A DNA stretch of 64,000 bases from Squalus acanthias (lineage: Eukaryota): assembly GCA_030390025.1 (NCBI GenBank), contig CM059432.1, forward strand, positions 34,536,001 to 34,600,000, written 5' to 3'. The position numbers and the translations under genes were made by a program. The notes beneath the pieces are model-generated. The model was not told the DNA's origin. It saw only the letters and a list, made by a program, of their open reading frames with translations, and did not search any database. Below, piece after piece: positions 2,020 through 56,960 of this stretch. Each line of letters starts with the position of its first letter. The first letter of the stretch is position 1.

Positions 2020-3065
2020 GCTCTACACACAAGGAAGATGGTTGTGGTGATTGAAGGTCAATTATCACAGCCCCAGGAGTTCCTCAGGGCAGTGTCCTAG
2101 GCCCAACCATCTTCAGCTGCTTCATCAATGACCTTCCCTCCAAGGTCAGAAATGGGGATGTTCGCTGATGACTGCACAGTGTTCAGCGCCATTCACAACT
2201 CCACAGATAATGAAGCAGTCCATGCCCGCATGCAACAAGACCTGGACGACGTTCAGGCTTGGGCTGATAAGTGGCAGGTAACATTCGCGCCACAGAAGTG
2301 CCAGACAATGACTATCTCCAACAAGCGAGAGTCTAAACATCGCCCCTTGACATTCAATGGCATTACCATCACCGAATCCCCCACCATCAACATCCTGGGG
2401 GTCACCATTGAACAGAAACTTAACTGGACCAGCCACATAAATACTGTGGCAACAAGAGCAGGCCAGAGGCTAGGTATTCTGCGGCGAGTGTCTCACCTCC
2501 TGACTCCCCAAAGCCTTTCTACCATCTACAAGGCACAAGTAAGGAGTGTGATGGAATACTCTCCACTTGCCTGGATGAGTGCAGCTCCAACAACACTCAA
2601 GAAGCTCGACAACATCCAGGACAAAGCAGCCCACTTGTTTGGCACCCTCTCTACCACCTTAAACATCCACTCCCTCCATCACCGGCGTACCGTGGCTGCA
2701 GTGTGTACCATCTACAAGATGCACTGCAGCAACTCGCCAAGGCTTCTTTGGCAACTCCTTCCAAACCCGCGACCTCTACCACCTAGAAGGACAAGGGCAG
2801 CAGACGCATGGGAACACACCATCTCCAAGTTCCCCTCCAAGTCACACATCATCCTGACTTAGAAGTATATCGCCGATCCTTCATCGTCGCTGGGTCAAAA
2901 TCCTGGAACTCCCTACCTAACAGCACTGTGGGATTACCTTCACCACACAGACTGCAGCGATTCAAGAAGGCGGCTCACCACCACCTTCTCAAGGGCAATT
3001 AGGGATGGGCAATAAATGCTGGCTTTGCCAGCGACGCCCACATCCCATAAAAACGAATAAAAAAA
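2020..3065 (+). mobile_element. 5'-truncated non-LTR retrotransposon (RT C-half plus 3' tail), same family as 4461-7682
   Basis: ORF 2128-2862 has FADD and the RT C-terminus. Ends in GGGCAATAAATGCTGGC..CACATCCCAT plus an A-rich tail. Confidence 0.9.
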
Positions 3066-4054: not shown

Positions 4055-7000
4055 ACATAGGAACAGGAGTAGGTCATTCAGCCCCTCGAGCCTGTTCCAC
4101 CATTCAATTAGATCATGGCTGATCTGTATCTCAACTCTATTTACCGGCGTTTGTTGCATATCCAATATCCTTACCTAAGAAAAATCTATCAATCTCCATT
4201 TTGAAATTTTCAATTGACCTAGCCTCAACAGCTTTTTGGGGGAGAGAATTCCAGATTTCCACTACCCTTTGTGTGAAGACATGCTTCTGACATCACCCTT
4301 GAATGGCCTAGCTCTAATTTTAAGGTTATTCCCCCTTGTTCTGAACTCCCCCACCAAAGGAAATAGTTTCTCTATCTACCCTATCAAATATTTTAACCAT
4401 CTTAAACACCTCAATTATATCACCCTTAATCTTCTATACTCAAGTGAATACAAGCCTAGTTTATTTATTTTTTATTCATTCCTGGGATGTGGGCGTCGCT
4501 GGCAAGGTCAGCATTTATTGCCCATCCCTAATTGCCCTTGAGTAGGTGGTGGTGAGCCGCCTTCTTGAACCGCTGCAGTCCTTGTGGTGAAGGTACTCCC
4601 ACAGTGCTGTTAGGGAGGGAGTTCCAGGATTTTGACCTAACGACGATGAAGGAACGGCGATATATTTCCAAGTCAGGATGATGTGTGACTTGGAGGGGAA
4701 CTTGGAGGTGGTGGTGTTCCCATGCATCTGCTGCCCTTGTCCTTCTAGGTGGTAGAGGTCGCGGGATTGGGAGGTGCTGCCGAAGACGCCTTGGTGAGTT
4801 GCTGCAGTGCAACTTGCAGATGGTACACACTGCAGCCACGGTACGCCGGTGGTGGAGGGAGTGAATGTTTAAGGTGGTGGATGGGCTGCCAATCAATTGG
4901 GCTGCTTTGTCCAGAATGGTGTTGAGCTTCTTGAGTGTTGTTGGAGCTGCACTCATCCAGGCAAGTGGAGAGTATTCCATCACACTTCTTACTGTGCCTT
5001 GTAGATGGTGGAAATGCTTTGGGGAGTCAGGAGGTGGGACACTCGCCGCAGAATACCCAGCCTCTGACCTGCTCTTGTTGCCACAGTATTTATGTGGCTG
5101 GTCCAATTCTGTTTCTGGTCAATAGTGACCCGCAGGATGTTGATAGTGGGGGATTCGGCGATGGTAATGCCGTTAAATGTCAAGGGGCGGTGGTTAGACT
5201 CTCGCTTGTTGGAGATAGTCATTGCCTGGTACTTGTGTGGTGCGAATGTTACCTGCCACTTATCAGCCCAAGCCTGAATGTCGTCCATGTCTTGCTGCAT
5301 TCGGGCATGGACTGCTTCATTATTTGAGGAGTTGCGAATGGAACTGAACACTGTGCAATCATCAGTGAACATCCCCACTTCTGACCTTATGATAGAGGGA
5401 AGGTCATTGATGAAGCAGCTGAAGATGGTTGGGCCAAGGACACTGCCCTGAGGAACTCCTGCAGCGATGTCCTGGGGCTGAGATGATTGACCTTCAACAA
5501 CTACAACCATCTTCCTTTGTGCTCGGTATGACTCCAGCCAGTGGAGAGATTTCCCCCCCGATTCCCATTGACTTCAGTTTTACTAGGGCTCCTTGATGCC
5601 CCACTCGGTCAAATGCTGCCTTGATGTCAAGGGTAGTCACTCTCACCTCACCTCTGGAATTCAGCTCTTTTATCCATGTTTGGACCAAAGCTGTAATGAG
5701 GTCTGGAGCCGAGTGGTCCTGGTGGATCCCAAACTGAGCATGTTATTGGTGAGTAAGTGCTGCTTGAAAGCACTGTCGACAACACCTTCCATCACTTTGC
5801 TGATGATTGAGAGTAGACTGATGGGGTGGTAATTGGTCGGATTGGCTTTGTCCTGCTTTTTGTGGAAGGACATATCTGGGCAGTTTTCCACATTGTCGGG
5901 TAGATGCCAGTGTTGTAGCTGTACTGGAACAGCTTGGCTAGAGACGCGGCTAGTACTGGAGCACAAGTCTTCAGCACGACAGCTAGGATGTTGTCAGGGC
6001 TCATAGCCTTTGCTGTATCCAGTGCGCTCAGCCGTTTCTTGATATCACTTGGAGTGAATCAAATTAGCTGAAGACTGGCTTCTGTGATGACCTCAGGAGG
6101 AGGCCAATATGGATCATCCACTCGGCACTTCTGGCTGAAGATGGTTGCAAACGCTTCAGCTTTGTCTTTTGCACTCGTGTGCTGGGCTCCACCATCATTG
6201 AGGATGGGGATATTCATGGAGCCTCCTCCTCCCATTAGTTGTTTAATTGTCCACCACCATTCACGACTGGATGTGGCAGGACTGCAGAGCTTTGATCTGA
6301 TCCGTTGATTGTGGGATCGCTTAGCTCTGTCTATAGCATGCTGCTTCCGCTGTTTAGCATGCATGTAGTCCTGTGTTGCAGCTTCCCCAGGTTGGCACCT
6401 CATTTTTAGGTATGCCTGGTGCTGCTCCTGGCATGCTCTTCTACACTCCTCATTGAACCAGGGTTGGTCCCCTGGCTTGATGGTAATGGTAGAGTGAGGG
6501 ATATGCTGGGCTACGAGGTTACAGATTGTGATGGAATACAATTCTGCAGCTGCTGATGCCCCACAGCGCCTCATGGATGCCCAGTTTTGAGCTGCTAGAT
6601 CTGTTCTGAATATATCCCATTTAGCACGGTGGTAATGCCACACAACAGTGTGAAGACGGGACTTCGTCTCTACAAGGACTTTGTGTTGGTCACTGCTACC
6701 AATGCATCTGCAACAGGTAGATTGGTGAGGACGAGGTCAAGTAGGTTTTTCCCTCGTGTTAGGTTCTCTCACCACCTGCCACAGTCCTAGCCTGGCAGCT
6801 ATGTCCTTCAGGACTCAGCCAGCAGCGGTGCTACTGAGCCACTCTTGGTTATGGACATTGAAGTCCCCCACCCAGAGTACATTCTGTGCCCTTGCTACCA
6901 CCAAGGTGTTCAACATGGAGGAGTACTGATTCATCAGCTGAGGGAGGGCAGTAGGTGGTAATCAGCAGGAGGTTTCCTTGCCCATGCTTCATTGGGTCCA

Positions 7001-7910
7001 GAGTCAATGTTGAGGATTCCCAGGGCCAGTCCCTCCCGACTGTATACCACTGTGCCGCCACCTCTGCTGGGTCTGTCCTGCCGGTGGGACAAGACATACC
7101 CAGGGATGGTGATGGAGGAATCTGGGACATTGGCTGAAAGGTATGATTCTGTGAGTATGACTATGTCAGGCTGTTGCTTGACTAGTCTGTGGGACAGCTC
7201 TCCCAATTTTGGCACAAGTTCCCAGATGTTGGTGAGGAGGACTTTGCAGGGTTGACTGGGCTGGGTGTGCCGTTGTCATGTCCGAAGCTGGTGCCAAGGT
7301 CGATGCCAGGTGGTCCGTCCAGTTTTATTCTTATTGTTTTCTGTAGTGGTTTCATTCTTGTTATTGTGTTTCGTAGCGGTTGTGTACAACTGAGCGGCTT
7401 GTTAGGCCATTTCAGAGGGCAGTGGGTCTGGAGTCACATGTAGGCCAGACCTAGTAAGGACGGCAGATTTCCTTCCCTGCAGGGCATTAGTGAACCAAAT
7501 GGGTTTTTACGAAAATCCGGTAGTTTCATGGTTACCATTACTGATACTAGCTTTTTATTCCAGATTTACTGAATTTAAATTCCCCAGCTGCCATGGTGGG
7601 ATTTTAACTCACGTCTCTGGGTCATTAGTCCAGGCCTCTGGATTACTAGCCCAGTAACATAACCACTATGCTACCGTTCCCGGTAACGTCCTGATAATTT
7701 AGCCCTTTAAGCCCCAGTATCATTCTGGTAAATCTACGCTGCACCCCCTCCAGAGCCAATATATCCTTCCTGAGGTGCGATACCCAAAACAAAATGCAGT
7801 ACTGCAGATGGGGTCTGGCCAAGACTCTGTACAACTGAAGCATCGTTCCTCCCCTTTGTATTCCAGGCCCCTCGAGATAAAGGAAAACATTCCAGTAGCC
7901 TTTTTCATTA
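4055..7910 (-). mobile_element. CR1 3' fragment split by the 4461-7682 insertion (host parts about 4055-4460 and 7683-7910)
   Basis: CR1 tail at 4055. Host sequence AATACAAGCCTAGTTTAT resumes as TAACGTCCTGATAATTTAG. ORF 7646-7843 encodes the CR1 RT C-terminus. Confidence 0.8.
4461..7682 (-). mobile_element. Apparently full-length, degenerate single-ORF non-LTR retrotransposon (APE endonuclease + RT) with a tRNA-like 5' head
   Basis: Minus-strand ORF pieces: APE (QQPDIVILTESYL), linker, NYHPISLLS, GVPQGSVLGP, FTDD, 3' tail. The head has an A-box TAGCATAGTGG and a B-box-like GAGTTAAAATCCC. The host CR1 rejoins across both ends. Confidence 0.85.
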
Positions 7911-30164: not shown

Positions 30165-30495
30165 TACAGTAGATTAGTGGTTATGGTACTACACTAGCAA
30201 CCCTGAGGTTGTGGGTTCAAAGTGAACCAAGGTAAGTTGTGAAATTTAATTCAATAAATCTGGTAATTTGTGGACTGGCATCAGAAAAAGACCATTGAAA
30301 AACCTGCACAATTGTTGTACAAAACCAATTGGTCCACTAATGATGTCCTTCAGAAAACAGAACCTGCCACCTTTACCTGGTCTGGGCCTATATGTGACTC
30401 CAGTTCCACACTATGTGGTTGATTCGTAATGGCTTCAAGGGATGGGCAATAAATACTGCCTTGCCAGTCTCATCGCATCCCAAGAACAAGTAAAA
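30165..30495 (+). mobile_element. tRNA-headed SINE related to both ends of the 4461-7682 LINE
   Basis: TAGTGG..GGGTTCAAA head, central TGGCCTATATGTGACTCCAG-type block, tail GGGATGGGCAATAAAT..CCTTGCCAG. Confidence 0.75.
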
Positions 30496-34134: not shown

Positions 34135-36920
34135 CCATAGAAACATAGAAGATAGGAGCAGGAGTAGGCCATTCGGCCCCTCGAGCCTGCTCCGCCATTT
34201 AATGAGATCATGGCTGATCATCCAAATACAGTACCCTGTCCCTGCTTTCTCCCCATATCCCTTGATACCTTTAGCCTTAAGAAATATATCTAACTCCTTC
34301 TTGAATATATTTAATGAATTGGCCTCAACTGTCTTCTGTGGTAGAGAATTCCACACGTTCACCACTCTCTGGGTGAAGAAATTCCTCCTCATCTCAGTCC
34401 TAAATGGCTTACCCCTTATACTTAGACTGTGACCCCTGGTTCTGGACTCCCCCGCCATCGGGAACATCCTTCCTGCATCTAGTATGTCTAGTCCTGTTAG
34501 AATTTTATAAGTTTCAATGAGATCCCCTCTCATTCTTCTAAACTCTAGCGAATATAAGCCTAATCGACCCAATCTCTCTTCATACGTCATTCTTGCCATC
34601 CCAGGTATCAGTCTGATGAATCTTCGCTGCACTCCCTCCATGGCAAGAACATCCTTCCTCAGATAAGGCGACCAAAACTGCACACAATACTCAAGGTGTG
34701 GTCTCACCAAGGCCCTGTACAACTGCAGCAAGACATCCTTGCTCCTGTACTCGAATCCTCTCACTATGAAGGCCAACATACCATTTGCCTTCTTAACCGT
34801 CTGCTGCATCTGCATGCTTACCTTCAGCAACTAGTGCACAAAGGCACCCAGGTCTTGTTGCACTTCCCCTTTTCCCAATCTATTGCCGTTCAGATAATAA
34901 TCTGTCTTCCTGTTTTTGCCACCAAAGTGGATAACCTCGCATTTATCCACATTATACTGCATCTGCCATATCACCCAACCTGTCCAAATCATACTGGAGT
35001 TTCTCTGCATCCTCCTCACAGCACACACGCCCACCCAGCTTTGTGTCGTCTGCAAACTTGGAGATATTACATCTAGTTCCCTCGTCTAGATCATTAATAT
35101 ATATTGTGAATAGCTGGGGTCCTAGCACCGATCCCTCCGGTACCCCACTAGTCACTGCCTGCCACTCGGAAAAAGACCCATTTATTCCAACTCTTTGCTT
35201 CCTGTCTGCCAACCAGTTCTCTATCCAAGTCAGTACCTTACCCCCAATCCCATGTGCTTTAACTTTGCACGCTAATCTCTTATGCGGGACTTTATTGAAA
35301 GCCTTCTGAAAGTCCAAATACACCACATCCACTGGTTCTCCCTTATCTATTCTACCAGTTACATCCTCAAAAAATTCCAGTAGATTAGTCAAGCATGATT
35401 TACCTTTTGTAAATTCATGTTGACTTTGTCTGATCCTGTCACTGTTTTCCAAGTGCTCTGCTATTACATCTTTTATAATGGACTCTAGCATTTTCCCCAC
35501 TACCGATGTCAGGCTTACCGGTCTATAATTTCCCGTTTTCTCTCTACCACCTTTTTTAAATAGTGGGGTTACATTAGCTACCCTCCAATCCATGGGAACT
35601 GTTCCAGAGTCTATAGAATTTTGGAAGATGACCAGCAATGCATCTATTATTTCTAGGGCCACTTCCTTAAGTACCCTAGGATGTAGATTATCAGGCCCTG
35701 GGGATTTATCGGCCTTCAATCCCGTCAATTTCCCTAACACCATTTCCCTACAAATACTGATTTCATTCAATTCCTCCCTCTCATTAGACCCTATGTTCCC
35801 CGACATCTCTGGGAGGTTATTTGTGTCCTCCTTTGTGAAGACAAAACCAAAGTATGTATTTAATTGTTATGCCATTTCTTTGTTCCCCGTTATAAATTCC
35901 CCTGATTCTGACTGCAAGGGACCTACGCTTGACTTCACCAATCTTGTGCTCTTCACATATCTATAAAAGCTTTTACAGTCAGTTTTTATGTTCCCTGAAA
36001 GCTTACTCTCATATTCTATTTTCCCCCTCTTAATTAATCCCTTTGTCCTTCTTTGCTGAATCCTAAACTGCTCCCAATCCTCAGGTTTGCTGCTTTTTCT
36101 GGCCAATTTATATGTCCTCTCCTTGGATCTTATGCTATCCCTAATTTCCCTTGTTAGCCACAGTTGAGTCACCTTTTTTGTTTTATTTTTATGCCAAACA
36201 GGGATGAACAAATTATGTAGTTCATCCATGCGATCTTTAAATGTTTGCCATTGCCTATCCACCATCAACCCTTTACGTAATGCTCCCCAATCCATCCTAG
36301 CCAACTCACGCCTCATACCATCGTAGTTTCCTTTATTTAAATTCAGGACCCTAGTTTCTGAGTCAACTACTTCACTCTCCATCTTAATGAAGAATTCTAT
36401 CATATTATGATCGCTCCTCCCCAAGGGGCCTCGCACAAGATTGCTAATTAATCCTTTCTCATTACATAATACCCAGTCTAAGATGGCCTGATCTCTAGTT
36501 GGTTCTCGACATATTGGTCCAGGAAACCATCCCGTATACACTCTAGGAATTCCTCCTTCACAGTATTGTTACTAATTTGGTTAGCCCAATCTATATGTAG
36601 ATTAAAGTCACCCATGATAACTGCTGTGCCCTTATTGCACGCATCTCTAATTTCCCATTTAATGCCATCCCCAACCTCAGCATTACTGTTTGGGGGTCTG
36701 TATACAACTCCCACTAATGTTTTCTGCCCCTTGGTTTTTCTCAGCTCTACCCATACAGATTCCACATCATCAGAGCTAATATCCTTCCTTACTATTGTGT
36801 TAATCTCCTCTTTAACCAGCAATTCTACCCCACCTCCTTTTCCTTTTTGCCTGTCCTTCCTGAATATTGAATACCCCTGGATGTTGAATTCCCAGCCTTG
36901 GTCACCCTGGAGCCATGGAC
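34135..36920 (-). mobile_element. CR1 LINE ORF2 (partial APE + RT), degenerate
   Basis: ORFs 36478-37065 (GDFN), 35867-36541 (SDHN), 34952-35806 (FADD) and 34102-34830; tail CATAGAAACATAGAA. Confidence 0.95.
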
Positions 36921-44499: not shown

Positions 44500-44840
44500 T
44501 AAGGTAGTGTAGTGGTTATGTTACTAGGTTAGTAATCCAGAGGCCTGGACTAATAATCCAAAGAACATAAGTTTATAATCTCACCATGGCAGTTTGAGAA
44601 TTTAATCTGGAAAATAAAAAGCTGATATCAGTAAAAGTGACCATGAAACTGATGGATTGTCGTAAAAACTCAACTAATGTCCTTTTTAAGGATGGACAAC
44701 CTGATGTCCTCACCCAGTCTGGCTTGTATGTGACTCCAGTCCCACACCAATGTGGTTGACCCTTACAGCTGGGTGGCTTGCCAGGTATTTATCAAACTGC
44801 TCAGGGCAAGTAGGGATGGGCAATAAATGCTGGCTTTGCA
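44500..44840 (+). mobile_element. tRNA-headed SINE matching the 5' head and 3' tail of the 4461-7682 LINE
   Basis: GGTAGTGTAGTGGTTATGTTACT..AGTAATCCAGAGGCCTGGACTAAT head and CAGGGCAAGTAGGGATGGGCAATAAATGCTGGC tail. Confidence 0.85.
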
Positions 44841-46560: not shown

Positions 46561-48659
46561 TCTTCTCTACTAGGATGGTTAGTGTGGGGAATAGAATAAA
46601 TGTAACACTGGTGCAATAGGGTGTGCTCTTCTGTGATTGGGGTTGAGATACATTTTTTTTTGGAGCAGTGTAGAGGAAGCTTTATTCTGCATCCAACCTA
46701 TGCTGGACCTGAACTGAGAGTGCTTGACACTGGATAATCCAATTGGGAAAATCACAACTGGTTCACTATTATCCTTCAGGGAAGGGAACCGGCCACCCAA
46801 TCCCACACTACAAGAAAATAGTTGCCTTCTAAAGCGGCCTAGCAAACCACTCTTGTTTTCAACAATCATTAGAAAGTGACCCAGGTTCACCTTCTCTGGG
46901 CAAATAGAGATGGGCAATAAATCCACAACCTGACAACAAATGAAGGAAAAAAGTAGCTTTGTTCCCAGCAATAGTATCGGTCATTAATTTGCAGCTGTAC
47001 TTTAATGCTTCCTCTTGTTGAAATGAAGTTTCCTATAACTCTGATGTATGAACCCCATATGATTAGAAGCCATGAACACCCAAGGTACAATTATTTCCTG
47101 AAATCCAGAGCAATTCAACACTACAGAATGGGAAATGGGTGGGCTGAGGGCTGGAGAAGCTTCCCCTAGCTTTGATTTCCCTCCAACTGAGTCTCACTGC
47201 CCAGGTGATGCCCCCTGTTGGAGGGCAAGGAAAATTGGAAGCGGAGTTATTGCTAGTTTGCTCTGCTCCTTGTAACTGGTGATTGTTAGGAAACCTAGAT
47301 TTAGAAAAATGGGTATTCCCAGCAGGTTTACTTTCAGATTGCAGCCAATGATCTTGCAAATATTGCACACATTCATTGAATTCAATTTCACAATCTGTGA
47401 TTGGTGGCTGTGCCCTACACTCTGGAAAGTATTTCCCTAAACCCTTCTGCTTCTCCACCTCTTCCTTTAAGACCCTATTTAAAACCCACCACTTTGACCA
47501 ACCCCCTCCTAATATCTCTTTCTTTGGTTCTGCGTCCATTTTTGTCGGATTACACCTCTGTGAAGCGCCTTGGGACATTTTGTTCTCTATGTTAAAGGGG
47601 CTATATAGATGCAAGTTGTTGTGTCAAATTTGAAGAGTTGCCATTGTCTTCACGATCTTCATCTTCATCCCTAATCCCTGCCCAAACCCATTGGTATTTA
47701 GAACTGAAATGTGGTCAGGACAGGCATGCATTGATCAAGAGGTGGAAGCAAAATGCTCCTCAATTGTATATTTTCCTTGCATGAGATTGCTATTGGAAAG
47801 AGAAAGACTAGATAAACTGCAGCTCTGATTTCTCCCCTTTCCAAAGCTACGTGAGAAGCAGAAGTGAACCTGTTATTTTTTGTGATATGTGTGACTTATA
47901 CCAGTCCCAGTAGAACTGGACAACAGGCTGTCTAGGCCTGAAGGGCTTTCCTGCTCCCATATCAGCTGGCTGAATTGATCCTTTGACATTCAGGAGTGTC
48001 TCCCAGAAGGCTGAAGAGGTTTCTCTTGGTCCTATGCTGCTTTGACAGTATTGTCTACCCTTCTGCTATAACTTCAGGCTTTCTAGGAGCTTGTGGTGTT
48101 GAGTATTGAAGCTAGTTTTCAATTTTTCAATTTAAATAAATAAATGTAAGTAACTGACATGTGGAGCACTGCGCTGTGACTTTCTATGATGTGGAGTTGT
48201 AATCGTTCATGCAATACTCTCTGCTGAAGCAGAGGGGCTGTGTTAATTGTGTCAGTGTGAAGTCTGATTGCTCTGTGGCTGTATGTGGTGACAAATGGTA
48301 TGTGGGCCATGAGCTAAGTTTTAATAACTGTCATTTAAATATTTTTGTACTGTAGGAATAAAATAAAAAATGCACAATTTATTTTCCTTGCCTTTGTTTT
48401 CCCCCACCCCTTTATTCCCACTCTGCCACTCCTGGACTGGATCCAAGAAATATCTGGTGATCTGATGGGAAATTCTGCTTGCACAGTTAAGAGTACAACC
48501 TTTTTGACTTTTTTTCTCTCTCTCCCTTCCTTCCTCCCTTCCTTCCTCCCTCCCCCACTCCCTCCCTCTCCCTCCCTCCCCCTCTCTCTCTCTCTCTCTC
48601 TCTCTCGTCCTGTCAAACACTCGCAGGGCGTCGGTTAGATACAAAGTGAAGCACACTGC

Positions 48660-51100: not shown

Positions 51101-53069
51101 GGTGACTGCGTCCTGCGAGGTGGGTGCAGGAGATTACATTAAAGGGAAAGTATCCTGCAAGGATGCAGAAGGTGAGTACATTAAAGGGATAGCATAATCT
51201 CTATTCGAAGCACAACTCCTCCGAGCTCAGAATGTTATCAGATAAAGAATCTTAGGAATGGTGTAGTTTTGAGAAACAAATATTTAACAGAGAAAGCTGA
51301 AATCATCATATATTGAGATGAAGGCAAAACAATCCCACACACCTAGTGTCTCTGGTAAGTGCTAATTACTTGGCGCTGGCTGTCTCCAGTGTAGTGGGAG
51401 GAGTACTGGTTGGGAAGAGAAGGGGAGGCGAGAGGGAGAGAGCTGGCGCTGGGATGATCTGACTCTGCTCTGTTCCTGCATCAGGCAAGATCTAATTATA
51501 GGTCTGGGCTGCAGCACCAGTCATAAATATTTTGAGTAACTGAAACCAATTGTGTGCATTCTTTAATTGTAAACACTGTCCTCGCTATGTGAAGTATCTC
51601 TAGAGGAATAGCAAAACACGGGAAGAGCCTCTCAGACATTTCCTTATGCTTTCTTCTCCTGTCCTTTCACTTCCCCCTCTCATCCCTTCTTCTTTTCTGT
51701 CTCTCCTCTTCCCACCTCTAAATCTTTCTCCTTCCCCCCCCTTTACTGTTTCTCCCTTTCCTTCTCTCTTCCCTTGAGTGCAGTAGTGAGGGATTGCAAG
51801 CGGTGTCTCATTAAATGGTGGCCCTGGCCACCGCACGGGTGGAAAGATCCCACAGCACTATTCGAAGAGGAGCAGGGAGTTCTCCCAGTGTCCTGCCTAT
51901 ATTTATCCCTCACCAGCACCACTAGAAACCGATTGACTGGCCATTCATCTCACTTGCTGTTTGTGTGATCTTGCTGTGGAAATTGGCTGCCATATTTGCC
52001 AACATAATAACAATAACTACACTTCAAAAGTACTCGGTCATGTGATAAGATGCTATATTAAAGGCAAGTTTTTTACTACTTTCTCTTCTCTCCCTCTCTC
52101 CTCTTTCATCTCCCCTCTGTTCTTTCTCCTTTCTCTTTCCCATCCTTCCTCCCTCATTCTCTTTTTTCCTCTGGTTTTTCTTCCTCTACCATAGAATGGT
52201 TACAGCATAGAAGGAGGCCATTCGGCCCATGCCAGCTCTCTGCAAGAGCACTTCAGCTAGTCCCACTCCCCTGCCCTTTACCCATAGCCCAGCAATTTTT
52301 TTTCCTTCAGGTACTTATGCAACTCCCTTTTGGAAGCCACAATTGAATCTGCCTCCACCCTTTTCAGGTAGTGCATTCCAGATCATAACCACACGCTGCA
52401 TAAAAAAAGTTTTTCCTCCTGTCACCTTTGTACCCTCTCTGCCTTCTTTCCTGATCCTCTCTTGTCTTTACCCTCTTGTCCCCTTTCTCTCCCTCCTTTA
52501 CCTCCTCTCTCTTCCCCTTCTCCCTCTCTTTTCTTTGTGCATTCTCTTCTTTGTCTCTTCCCTCCTTCCTCTGTCTCACTCACTCTCCTCTATTCCCTTC
52601 TCTCCTTCCTCAATCTCTTGACCCCCTGCTCTTCTTCCCGGTAAGCCCTTCTCTCCTCTCCCACTCTGTGTCTCTTTCCTCTGCTCTTTTTCTCTGTGCC
52701 ACAGTACAGCTCTTGATCAGTTAGTAGAGCACTCACTATTCAAACGAACAATCCTCTACAATTAGAGTGAGCTGCACAATTTGCTGCACGGCCATCTCAA
52801 TTTTGAATAAAAAGTCCTGGAAACCGTGACAACTCGATTGTGATAATTTGTAATAACAAATCATCAGCCGCACTTAACAGCACTTACGATGTGCAGGTCC
52901 CTACAGTTCACTTCTGGTATAATTGGTGTTTGTTTCCATTCCAACTGTTAATGATACTATATTATAAGTTACTTGGGGTGAAGTAAGAGCATCAGGTGTA
53001 ATTTCACACATCAGTAACAACATGTATTAAATGGATGTGAAGCACTTTGGAATGTCCAAGAATGTCATT

Positions 53070-53400
53070 TGTGAATTTGTATTCAGTTTTAAATATCTAG
53101 AAATAAAAAGCTGGTAACAGTAACAGTGACCATGAAGTTGTCGGATTATTGCAGAAACCCAATTGGTTCACTAATGTACTTTAGGGAAAGGAACCTGCCA
53201 TCCTTACCCGATCTGGCCTATTTGACTCCATTCCCACACCAGTGTGGTTGATTCTTAACTGCCCTCTGAAGTGACCTAGCAAGCCACTCCGTTGTATCAA
53301 ACCACTTCGGTTCAAGAAGGCCCACCACCTTCTCAGGGCAACTAGGGAAGGATAATAAATGCTGGCCTTGCCAGCGATACCTGCATCCTGAAATAGATTT
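53070..53400 (+). mobile_element. SINE of the LINE-head/LINE-tail family, 5'-truncated
   Basis: Central block matches 7370-7560; the tail matches the LINE 3' end from CGGTTCAAGAAGG onward. Confidence 0.8.
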
Positions 53401-56589: not shown

Positions 56590-56960
56590 ATTTCAAATCC
56601 CAACTATTTATTGCAATTGAATTCAATAAATCTGGTCATTTGTGGGCTGGCACCAGAAAAAATGACCATGAAAACTGCCAGATTGTCATAAAAACCCAAC
56701 TAGTTCACTAGTGTCCTTCAGGGAAGGGAGCCAATCGGCAGGTTTCCTTCCCTAAAGAACATTAGTGAACTAGTTGTCTTTTTACAACAATCTGATAGGT
56801 TCATGGTCACTTTTACTGATACCAGCTTTTTATTTTCAGATTTTTTTAAAGCTGATTTCAAATTCTCACTGCCATGGTGGGATATGAACTCACGTTCTCT
56901 GGATTATTAATCTAGGCCTCTGGATTATTAGTTCAGTAAACATATCCAGTATACTACCAT
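56590..56960. mobile_element. Two opposed fragments of the tRNA-headed SINE family
   Basis: A plus-strand piece (56590-56730) faces a minus-strand piece (56735-56960) that includes the head. Confidence 0.7.

Follow-up and report, generated by a model that had tools for sequence, protein, structure and literature searches.

Does a long interspersed element (LINE) carry, as its own 5′ end, a transfer RNA (tRNA)-derived head of the kind found on short interspersed elements (SINEs), and what might such a head do there? Textbook SINEs take just the 3′ end of a LINE and have a head for RNA polymerase III (Pol III) from elsewhere, and LINEs are regarded as units of RNA polymerase II (Pol II). The question is raised by a stretch of 64,000 nucleotides from Squalus acanthias (GenBank assembly GCA_030390025.1, contig CM059432.1, positions 34,536,001 to 34,600,000 of the forward strand), hereafter called the window. 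An earlier note had described there, on the minus strand, a LINE that opens with an A box and a B-box-like sequence, runs through about 400 bp of noncoding sequence into a frame for apurinic-type endonuclease and reverse transcriptase (APE+RT) without ORF1 (ORF, open reading frame), lies as one unit in a CR1 element and has two ends that reappear as SINEs. The element, which spans 7687 to 4465, is a dead full-length copy of the known shark and ray Zenon LINE, with a tRNA-derived head at its start. Its parts are as follows.

4465..7687, minus strand: whole decayed full-length Zenon-family LINE, ~3.2 kb, inside a CR1-like element (sequence; host empty-site comparison; 5′ and 3′ ends of other copies)
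7682..7687, minus strand: GTTACC, which extends the 5′ end beyond the tRNA-like +1; found on some LINE copies and absent from SINE copies
7590..7681, minus strand: tRNA-derived head, in which the A box (7673-7663) precedes two CTGG..CCAG hairpins and a B box (7610-7598) mutated in this copy (Rfam, ARAGORN)
7373..7589, minus strand: leader body common to LINE and SINE, ending in ...ACCGCTAC; the 15-nt segment GCAATGTGGTTGACT is missing here (SINE/LINE consensus alignment)
7326..7372, minus strand: LINE-only end of the leader and start-codon site, here ATA at 7328-7326 (31-copy alignment)
4528..7328, minus strand: single APE+RT frame with frameshifts and stops, ending in TAG at 4530-4528 (ORF pieces, Pfam, tblastn)
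4465..4575, minus strand: 3′ tail common to the SINE, made up of the ORF's final ~45 nt with its stop codon, then GGGCAATAAATGCTGxCCTTGCCAGC and an A-rich end (tail consensuses; 12 copy ends)

Structure and family of the window copy

Comparison with the empty site of the host, together with the ends of other copies, identified the element as a single 3.2-kb insertion. Across the insertion site, the sequence of the CR1-like host is ...GAGGAC AGGTTGCATAAACTTGG... in eleven copies that are uninterrupted; in the window the host sequence breaks off at ...CAGGAC and picks up again at ATAAACTAGG, with ~7-9 host bases gone. Since the host element closes across both ends, head and coding body entered as one unit, as had been proposed. 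Comparison with the uninterrupted host copies revealed no target-site duplication at the window insertion, and none was seen at 13 LINE copy ends. Downstream of the TAG the window copy reads GGGCAATAAATGCTGACCTTGCCAGC..., followed by the A-rich end.

The minus strand from 7687 to 7663 reads GTTACC-GGGAAC-GGTAGCATAGTGG. Both promoter-like motifs of the earlier description were located on it, the A box (TAGCATAGTGG) at 7673-7663 and the B-box-like sequence (GAGTTAAAATCCC) at 7610-7598. The Rfam tRNA model matched window positions 7674-7595 with 21.6 bits (E 0.063 in a 601-nt search) and a 22-nt insert, under the gathering score of 29, and ARAGORN found no tRNA in the window copy. Two less decayed copies among the 16 loci scanned, L040 and L068, gave 28.2 and 27.5 bits on the whole Rfam tRNA model. 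ARAGORN called a tRNA in five of 38 loci, four times tRNA-Thr and once tRNA-Ile, in every case exactly at the head, and made no call outside the head in the 38 loci. The tRNA-Thr calls were 92-97 nt long, with AGT or TGT and a long extra arm, and came from LINE and SINE copies alike. In Rfam searches of the leader for ribozymes and other RNA families, with E up to 10, just the tRNA match and chance-level matches were obtained. Because the whole-model Rfam matches and the ARAGORN calls fall at the head only, the head of the Zenon LINE is, by its sequence, tRNA-derived. The preceding GTTACC is complete in the window and in one other locus (L008, re-fetched as L035); its final C or more is kept in ~10 of 28 anchored LINE copies and in none of 23 full-length SINE copies.

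Behind the head of the window copy come ~240 nt of noncoding body and then the fragments of a single broken frame. The noncoding leader of the family majority sequence measures 342 nt to the likely start and contains seven upstream ATGs, so that the leader running into an APE+RT frame was borne out and its length, put earlier at about 400 bp, was corrected. With a leader of just 342 nt there is no room for ORF1. At the start site, 18 of 31 aligned copies have AATGAAACC and ~11 of 31 have AATAAAAC. ATA takes the place of the presumed ATG in about one third of the 31 LINE copies, together with CTGG for the neighbouring CCGG, and such copies may form a subfamily that lacks a normal start codon. 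The window copy, in which the homologous start is ATA, has in addition a private duplication of ~27 nt (7340-7366, minus strand, ..CAATAACAAGAATGAAACCACTACAGAAAA..), which brings an ATG at 7355-7353. Two further copies, L059 and L064, both break at element position 365-366 and have ~600 nt of other sequence in common upstream, in inverted orientation; the same foreign repeat may have entered the leader in both, or the leader may exist in a variant form.

The frame pieces of the window gave a weak match to Exo_endo_phos (E 0.00068) and a match to RVT_1 (E 6.8e-16) in Pfam, and tblastn of P0002 spans window 6889-4531. The earlier note had suggested looking in a consensus for one intact ORF and for a lack of internal Pol III terminators. 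A majority sequence of 17 near-full copies (3,316 nt) has one open stretch of 973 codons, with at most 120 in the other two frames; the terminators are taken up below. Among single copies, L052 can be read over 883 codons, interrupted by a single stop, between ..RMKPDGPP.. (..RMKPDGPPGIDLG..) and the natural end of the frame, and L061 (a 5′-truncated copy) and L046 have 815 and 682 open codons, respectively. Thus the window pieces, L052, L061 and the majority sequence agree in a single APE+RT ORF without ORF1, as in Zenon.

Zenon elements are known from elasmobranchs, coelacanth and hagfish (Stuart et al. 2026, PMC13343379). The parts of that article drawn on here describe them as lacking ORF1, as the sole CR1-group elements with a poly-A tail, as grouping with crustacean elements and as not yet in repeat databases, and the consensuses are printed in its Supplementary Table 2. 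Compared by eye, the first ~400 nt of the printed SquAca_Zenon-1 differ from the 31-copy LINE leader consensus by ~3 bases and the 15-nt segment, and SquAca_Zenon-1, -2 and -3 open with the same head and leader, near-identical over the first 400 characters. All seven elasmobranch consensuses (CarCar, HypSab, RhiTyp, ScyCan and SquAca-1, -2 and -3) start, again by eye, with a head in which an A box fitting TRGCNNAGTGG is followed by a B box. The heads of CarCar, ScyCan, RhiTyp and HypSab Zenon-1 are related to it (A box TGGCGTAGTGG, TGGCATAGTGG or TGGCCTAGTGG; B box GGTTCGAATCC or a variant) and are followed by the same body, which is highly conserved, and by AATGAAAC. In hagfish and coelacanth the consensuses have a different start on inspection by eye. 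For HypSab_Zenon-1, Supplementary Table 3 of the same article gives 3 of 612 ORF2 as intact.

The LINE family is already published, head included, in the printed consensuses of this supplement, which settles the matter of a prior description that had been raised earlier. Set against the elasmobranch consensuses printed there, the window copy shows no difference in the element itself and is a member of the family. Like Zenon as published in those parts, the family has a single ORF, an A-rich tail (an A-rich run ends 12 of the 13 LINE copy ends listed) and crustacean, lepidopteran and amphioxus protein neighbours, found here. The nearest proteins, from 3-4 kb contigs, amphioxus, crabs and a butterfly, are 37-40 % identical, which is only consistent with the Zenon clade. 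Since 'tRNA', 'promoter', 'polymerase' and the whole word 'SINE' have zero occurrences in the main text of PMC13343379, neither the nature of the head nor its relation to the SINE is described in that text. Phrase searches of the literature (e.g. 'SINE-LINE hybrid', 'tRNA-LINE') found no paper describing a LINE with a SINE-type head. A gene model of another shark, named aldo-keto reductase-like (P0084), contains a stretch 89 % identical to the LINE ORF over 26 % of the query, probably a repeat fragment annotated as a coding exon.

The head-ORF join and the SINE

The join of head and coding body might have been unique to this locus, or other full-length copies might have had a different 5′ end with an ORF1, and the earlier note had named both outcomes as fatal to its reading. 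A 541-nt junction query, reaching from the head over the leader into the start of the ORF, had 9,704 first-look candidates; 40 of these were scored. The query was covered from within its first 50 bases to past base 440, across the leader-ORF boundary, at 36 of the 39 non-self places; two of the remainder have an internal gap across the same span and one ends at base 336. In all 29 fetched loci the sequence is continuous from head to coding body, with the match starting at element position 14-58. Nine of 20 re-fetched copies are unbroken from head to tail (3.1-3.26 kb), five more get to the tail in two or three pieces, and the other six stop earlier or are limited by the extent fetched. The 5′ ends of the LINE copies stack at (GTTACC)GGGAACGGTAGC or (GTTACC)GGGAACGG, with unrelated flanks.

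A second set of 18 loci, found with the RT protein and hence unbiased for the 5′ end, reached the head in two cases and was 5′-truncated at scattered points in 16. Neither another conserved 5′ end nor an ORF1 was present in these 18 loci; a longer alternative 5′ end was also rejected, their upstream flanks having just unrelated repeats in common. Neither of the two outcomes named as fatal was thus borne out. It is virtually certain that the whole family is built in this way, with a head, a leader, a single ORF for APE+RT and an A-rich tail. Perfect palindromes flank two LINE copies (L038, 5-126; L031, 4102-4187) and match microRNA precursor models on both strands with 52 bits (thresholds 76 and 93); they are probably hairpin-forming repeats.

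The short elements that had been placed near 44500, 53070 and 30165, and the fragments near 56590, are real, at 44503-44839, 53068-53391, 30193-30467 and 56646-56958. The SINE copies and fragments below were obtained by window comparison and consensus alignment, the last entry by window comparison and tblastn.

44503..44839, plus strand: 3′-truncated SINE copy in which head, body and some of the tail are present; a 37-nt deletion is private to it
53068..53391, plus strand: 5′-truncated SINE copy (consensus 91-426) with the body-tail junction visible
30193..30467, plus strand: degenerate SINE copy (consensus 48-283 and 379-409)
56958-56736, minus strand, and 56646-56727, plus strand: two SINE or LINE head-body fragments in opposite orientation
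46748-46922: additional SINE/LINE fragment
2026..3064, plus strand: 5′-truncated Zenon LINE of the same family, which retains the last ~1 kb and has 90 % identity to the element

Used as queries, two of the window SINEs gave 8,100 and 6,101 first-look candidates. The SINE consensus from 29 copies is 434 nt long, with GGGTAY in front. It aligns to the LINE leader consensus over 333 nt, the homology stopping exactly at ..ACCGCTAC (..AAACCGCTAC), and continues with CAGCGGTTCAAG (CAGCGGTTCAAGAAG...), a stretch that in the LINE comprises the final ~45 coding bases, the stop codon and the 3′ end. The SINE therefore consists of the first ~335 nt and the last ~120 nt of the LINE and is collinear with it throughout; the tail consensuses of the two are identical at 87 of 92 positions, and alignment of the SINE and LINE consensuses revealed no SINE-only segment. 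The 15-nt segment GCAATGTGGTTGACT, which is not in the window copy, occurs in 47 of 58 SINE loci and in 14 of 31 LINE copies, an older LINE subfamily retaining the same segment as the SINE, so that no part of the SINE is missing from the older LINE form. The short elements have the head of a tRNA-derived SINE (SINE2), with ARAGORN tRNA-Thr calls in SINE copies L100 and L105 and both boxes in the consensus, and the 3′ tail (87/92) in common with the partner LINE that is typical of SINE2. As in bipartite derivatives, they are made of LINE 5′ and 3′ parts only. The proposal that the SINEs are internal-deletion derivatives of the LINE is supported by the collinearity and by the lack of SINE-only sequence, from which such an origin appears probable. 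The LINE family and SINE-type joined forms are also present in several other organisms (4 sets of contigs).

A quick maximum-likelihood tree of the common 5′ part was built from 39 SINE and 31 LINE rows, leaving out four segmental duplicates as well as SINE-query loci that match from after consensus position 46 or end before 420 (including the LINE copies L110, L113 and L123). SINE and LINE rows fall on opposite sides of one branch of this unrooted tree (Shimodaira-Hasegawa-like approximate likelihood ratio, SH-aLRT, 100), and the Kimura two-parameter (K2P) distance between the two consensuses is 0.139. With LINE and SINE leaders in separate clades, the LINE lineage has kept its boxes independently. 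Reading the direction of descent from the tree was given up, since SINE and LINE leaders each form one side of a single branch of an unrooted tree. SINE copies L100, L104 and L109 on contig C1, and L126 and L127 on contig C8, have identical flanks at several places per contig; these are segmental or tandem duplications carrying the SINE along, not separate insertions.

Choice of polymerase and direction of descent

A LINE that spreads full-length copies needs a promoter within its 5′ end. In the LINE consensus the A box TAGCATAGTGG and the B box GAGTTCAAATCCC are ~55 nt apart, a tRNA-like spacing, and no run of four or more T (T4) precedes the 3′ end, so that the LINE has these two sequence features of a type-2 Pol III unit. 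Both boxes are at consensus in the LINE consensuses of five species, as printed, and in the separate LINE clade of this genome. The seven upstream ATGs and the ATA start in about one third of the copies argue against ordinary cap-scanning translation.

The coding strand of the 3,316-nt majority sequence has a T content of 19.6 % and contains seven runs of three T (T3) and no T4 or longer run, the lack of internal Pol III terminators that had been proposed as a check. Homopolymers of at least four number 14 for A, 11 for C and 9 for G. In the 17 copies (~54 kb) there are 15 runs of T4 or longer, all private and none common. A young control LINE family (window 34297-36514) has T4, T5 and T6 runs and 28 T3 in 3.4 kb, and T4 or longer runs number 2.3-6.3 per kb in seven window fragments that belong to other LINE families. 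The T4-free coding strand fits Pol III read-through, although the fit is statistically weak. The control family (minus strand; loci L129-L148) is a different LINE, with 40 scored copies 93-97 % identical to the window copy. Its majority sequence has a sharply defined 3′ boundary and an open frame of 757 codons, and the family is probably active or was so recently.

These results are drawn together in a reading whose probability is put only slightly below even. According to it, every full-length copy examined of the Zenon LINE has the tRNA head and the ~240-nt body, the SINE is the LINE minus its coding middle, and the head, a predicted Pol III promoter in the SINE, is likely to start the LINE RNA as well. 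A Zenon LINE would have gained a tRNA or tRNA-SINE 5′ end once, in the elasmobranch ancestor, most simply through template switching of its own RT, by analogy with U6/L1 and tRNA/L1 chimeras, and this head-LINE chimera would have turned into a master lineage. One deletion of ~2.8 kb would then have given rise to the SINE, with the promoter and the RT-recognised tail kept. TFIIIC is predicted to bind the A and B boxes, and Pol III to read through 3.3 kb without meeting a T4 terminator, the head being the predicted internal promoter of the SINE and likely also the start of the full-length LINE RNA. That Pol III makes the functional LINE RNA is, tentatively, the single most likely mechanism, at somewhat less than an even chance, with mixed or other routes making up the remainder beyond Pol II. 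In its fullest form, in which an autonomous shark and ray LINE would be transcribed by Pol III across 3.3 kb from a tRNA-type internal promoter, its T-run terminators purged and SINEs shed by internal deletion, the proposal is possible and on balance doubtful.

Several points weigh against this reading, and most of them bear on an alternative that is a real possibility, well short of an even chance, namely that the LINE is transcribed by Pol II, its head and body being a 5′ untranslated region kept for factor binding or RNA folding, and that only the SINE uses the boxes with Pol III. Pol III products are uncapped and normally shorter than ~0.5 kb, and the ORF of ~920 codons requires translation, which on a Pol III product would have to be unusual. 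The tail contains AATAAA ~40 nt ahead of the A run; with the poly-A tail, also given for Zenon in the consulted parts of PMC13343379, it is no less compatible with Pol II cleavage and polyadenylation than with Pol III. Some LINE copies begin 1-6 nt upstream of the first base of the SINE. The probability of finding no T4 run was 0.02 with a mononucleotide shuffle, 0.20 with a dinucleotide shuffle and 0.15 with a synonymous-codon shuffle covering the 3′ 687 codons only (1.5-4.0 runs expected); the depletion is thus not significant when dinucleotide or codon usage is preserved, and is largely due to T-poor composition (19.6 % T) and TTC-biased Phe codons. Kojima 2018 (PMC5786205), in the passages used, presumes bipartite LINEs and their parents to be Pol II units. 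The case for Pol III on the LINE comes from sequence evidence throughout, and intact copies were absent from the 65 scored places (of 571,835 candidates), 63 of which have stops inside the match; the two stop-free matches are L046's own 682-codon piece and the 5′-truncated L061. Against transcription by Pol II stands the consensus state of both boxes, in the LINE consensuses of five species and, within this genome, in a LINE clade distinct from that of the SINEs; a leader with seven upstream ATGs and often no ATG start would be poor for a scanned mRNA. No recognisable Pol II core element was found, no search aimed at one having been made.

Descent in the opposite direction, with an older tRNA-derived SINE whose head and body were captured by the LINE and which survives as today's SINE, is unlikely. 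Divergence from the respective consensus is about two times greater in the sampled SINE copies than in the sampled LINE copies (median K2P 0.102 vs 0.056), which also counts against derivation by deletion, but the LINE copies had been selected for their resemblance to a young copy and their lower age is partly a sampling effect. As the tree is unrooted and the LINE copies were picked near a young copy, ages and tree do not settle the direction of descent. The printed coelacanth and hagfish Zenon consensuses, which lack the head by eye, imply that the LINE gained it at some time. Against a capture, the SINE has no segment absent from the LINE, the last codons of the LINE sit in the SINE tail, and the join would have to lie exactly at the body-tail boundary of the SINE, 12-25 nt before the ORF start. 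An event confined to this locus, either a SINE landing beside a 5′-truncated LINE or a single template switch, draws what plausibility it has from the general frequency of nested repeats; it is refuted by the junction survey, in which all 29 fetched loci, spread over many contigs and with flanks unrelated to one another, have the same junction and nine of 20 copies are full-length, and by the closure of the host element across both ends, so that its probability is close to nil.

Zenon among known LINE and SINE pairs

According to the parts of Kojima 2018 (PMC5786205) used here, the only LINE 5′ parts known in SINE bodies are those of RTE and Vingi, and bipartite derivatives are known only from RTE, Ingi, Vingi and R2. 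The Zenon SINE resembles Bov-B/Bov-A/Bov-tA and the RTE- and Vingi-derived SINEs described there in being made of LINE 5′ and 3′ parts via internal deletion. In those cases the tRNA head is on the SINE only and is thought to have been added later (PMC5786205), whereas here the LINE, a Zenon element of the CR1 group, bears the head itself. Chimeric U6/L1 and tRNA/L1 insertions, which arise by template switching and do not propagate (bioRxiv 10.1101/2025.02.02.635956, as far as the text used goes), resemble the Zenon LINE in that a single insertion unites a Pol III small RNA with LINE sequence lying 3′ of it; unlike in those insertions, the chimera is here the canonical form of a large family.

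Two tRNA-derived SINEs of sharks and rays are similar in kind. SacSINE1, a tRNA-headed DeuSINE of the dogfish with a length of 463 bp, an L2-2_CM-like tail and a Deu-domain body (Luchetti et al. 2017, PMC5499810; PMC2746220), is likewise a shark tRNA-derived SINE with a LINE-derived tail and is close in size (463 bp vs ~434-450 nt here); it is set apart by description only, through its L2-2_CM-like tail and Deu body. No motif matches bearing on a Deu identity were found in full texts, in the searched files of the supplement of PMC4824008 or in the supplement of PMC11481361. The other is one half of a SINE and LINE pair of elasmobranchs. HE1 and HER1 of sharks and rays, reportedly described by Ogiwara et al. 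in 1999, are said to be a tRNA-SINE and a LINE with a common 3′ tail. HE1 is listed as a V-SINE with HER1 as its partner (table in PMC3747384, the part used here). The pairs are alike as elasmobranch tRNA-SINE and LINE pairs and differ, by description, in HE1 being a V-SINE. An assignment of the window element to HE1/HER1 and an L2-type LINE was dropped, as HE1 is a V-SINE and the Zenon supplement matched.

In Zenon the autonomous partner LINE itself bears a Pol III-type head, retained in sharks and rays alike. Even if the head is inactive on the LINE, a tRNA-derived sequence is still shown to be a long-lived LINE leader, and the Zenon LINE and SINE are a clean pair for testing the role of SINE bodies. 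If the head works on the LINE, Pol III would here produce a natural mRNA and a SINE could arise from a LINE in one step, and Kojima's idea of SINE bodies from LINE 5′ parts would reach the CR1 group.

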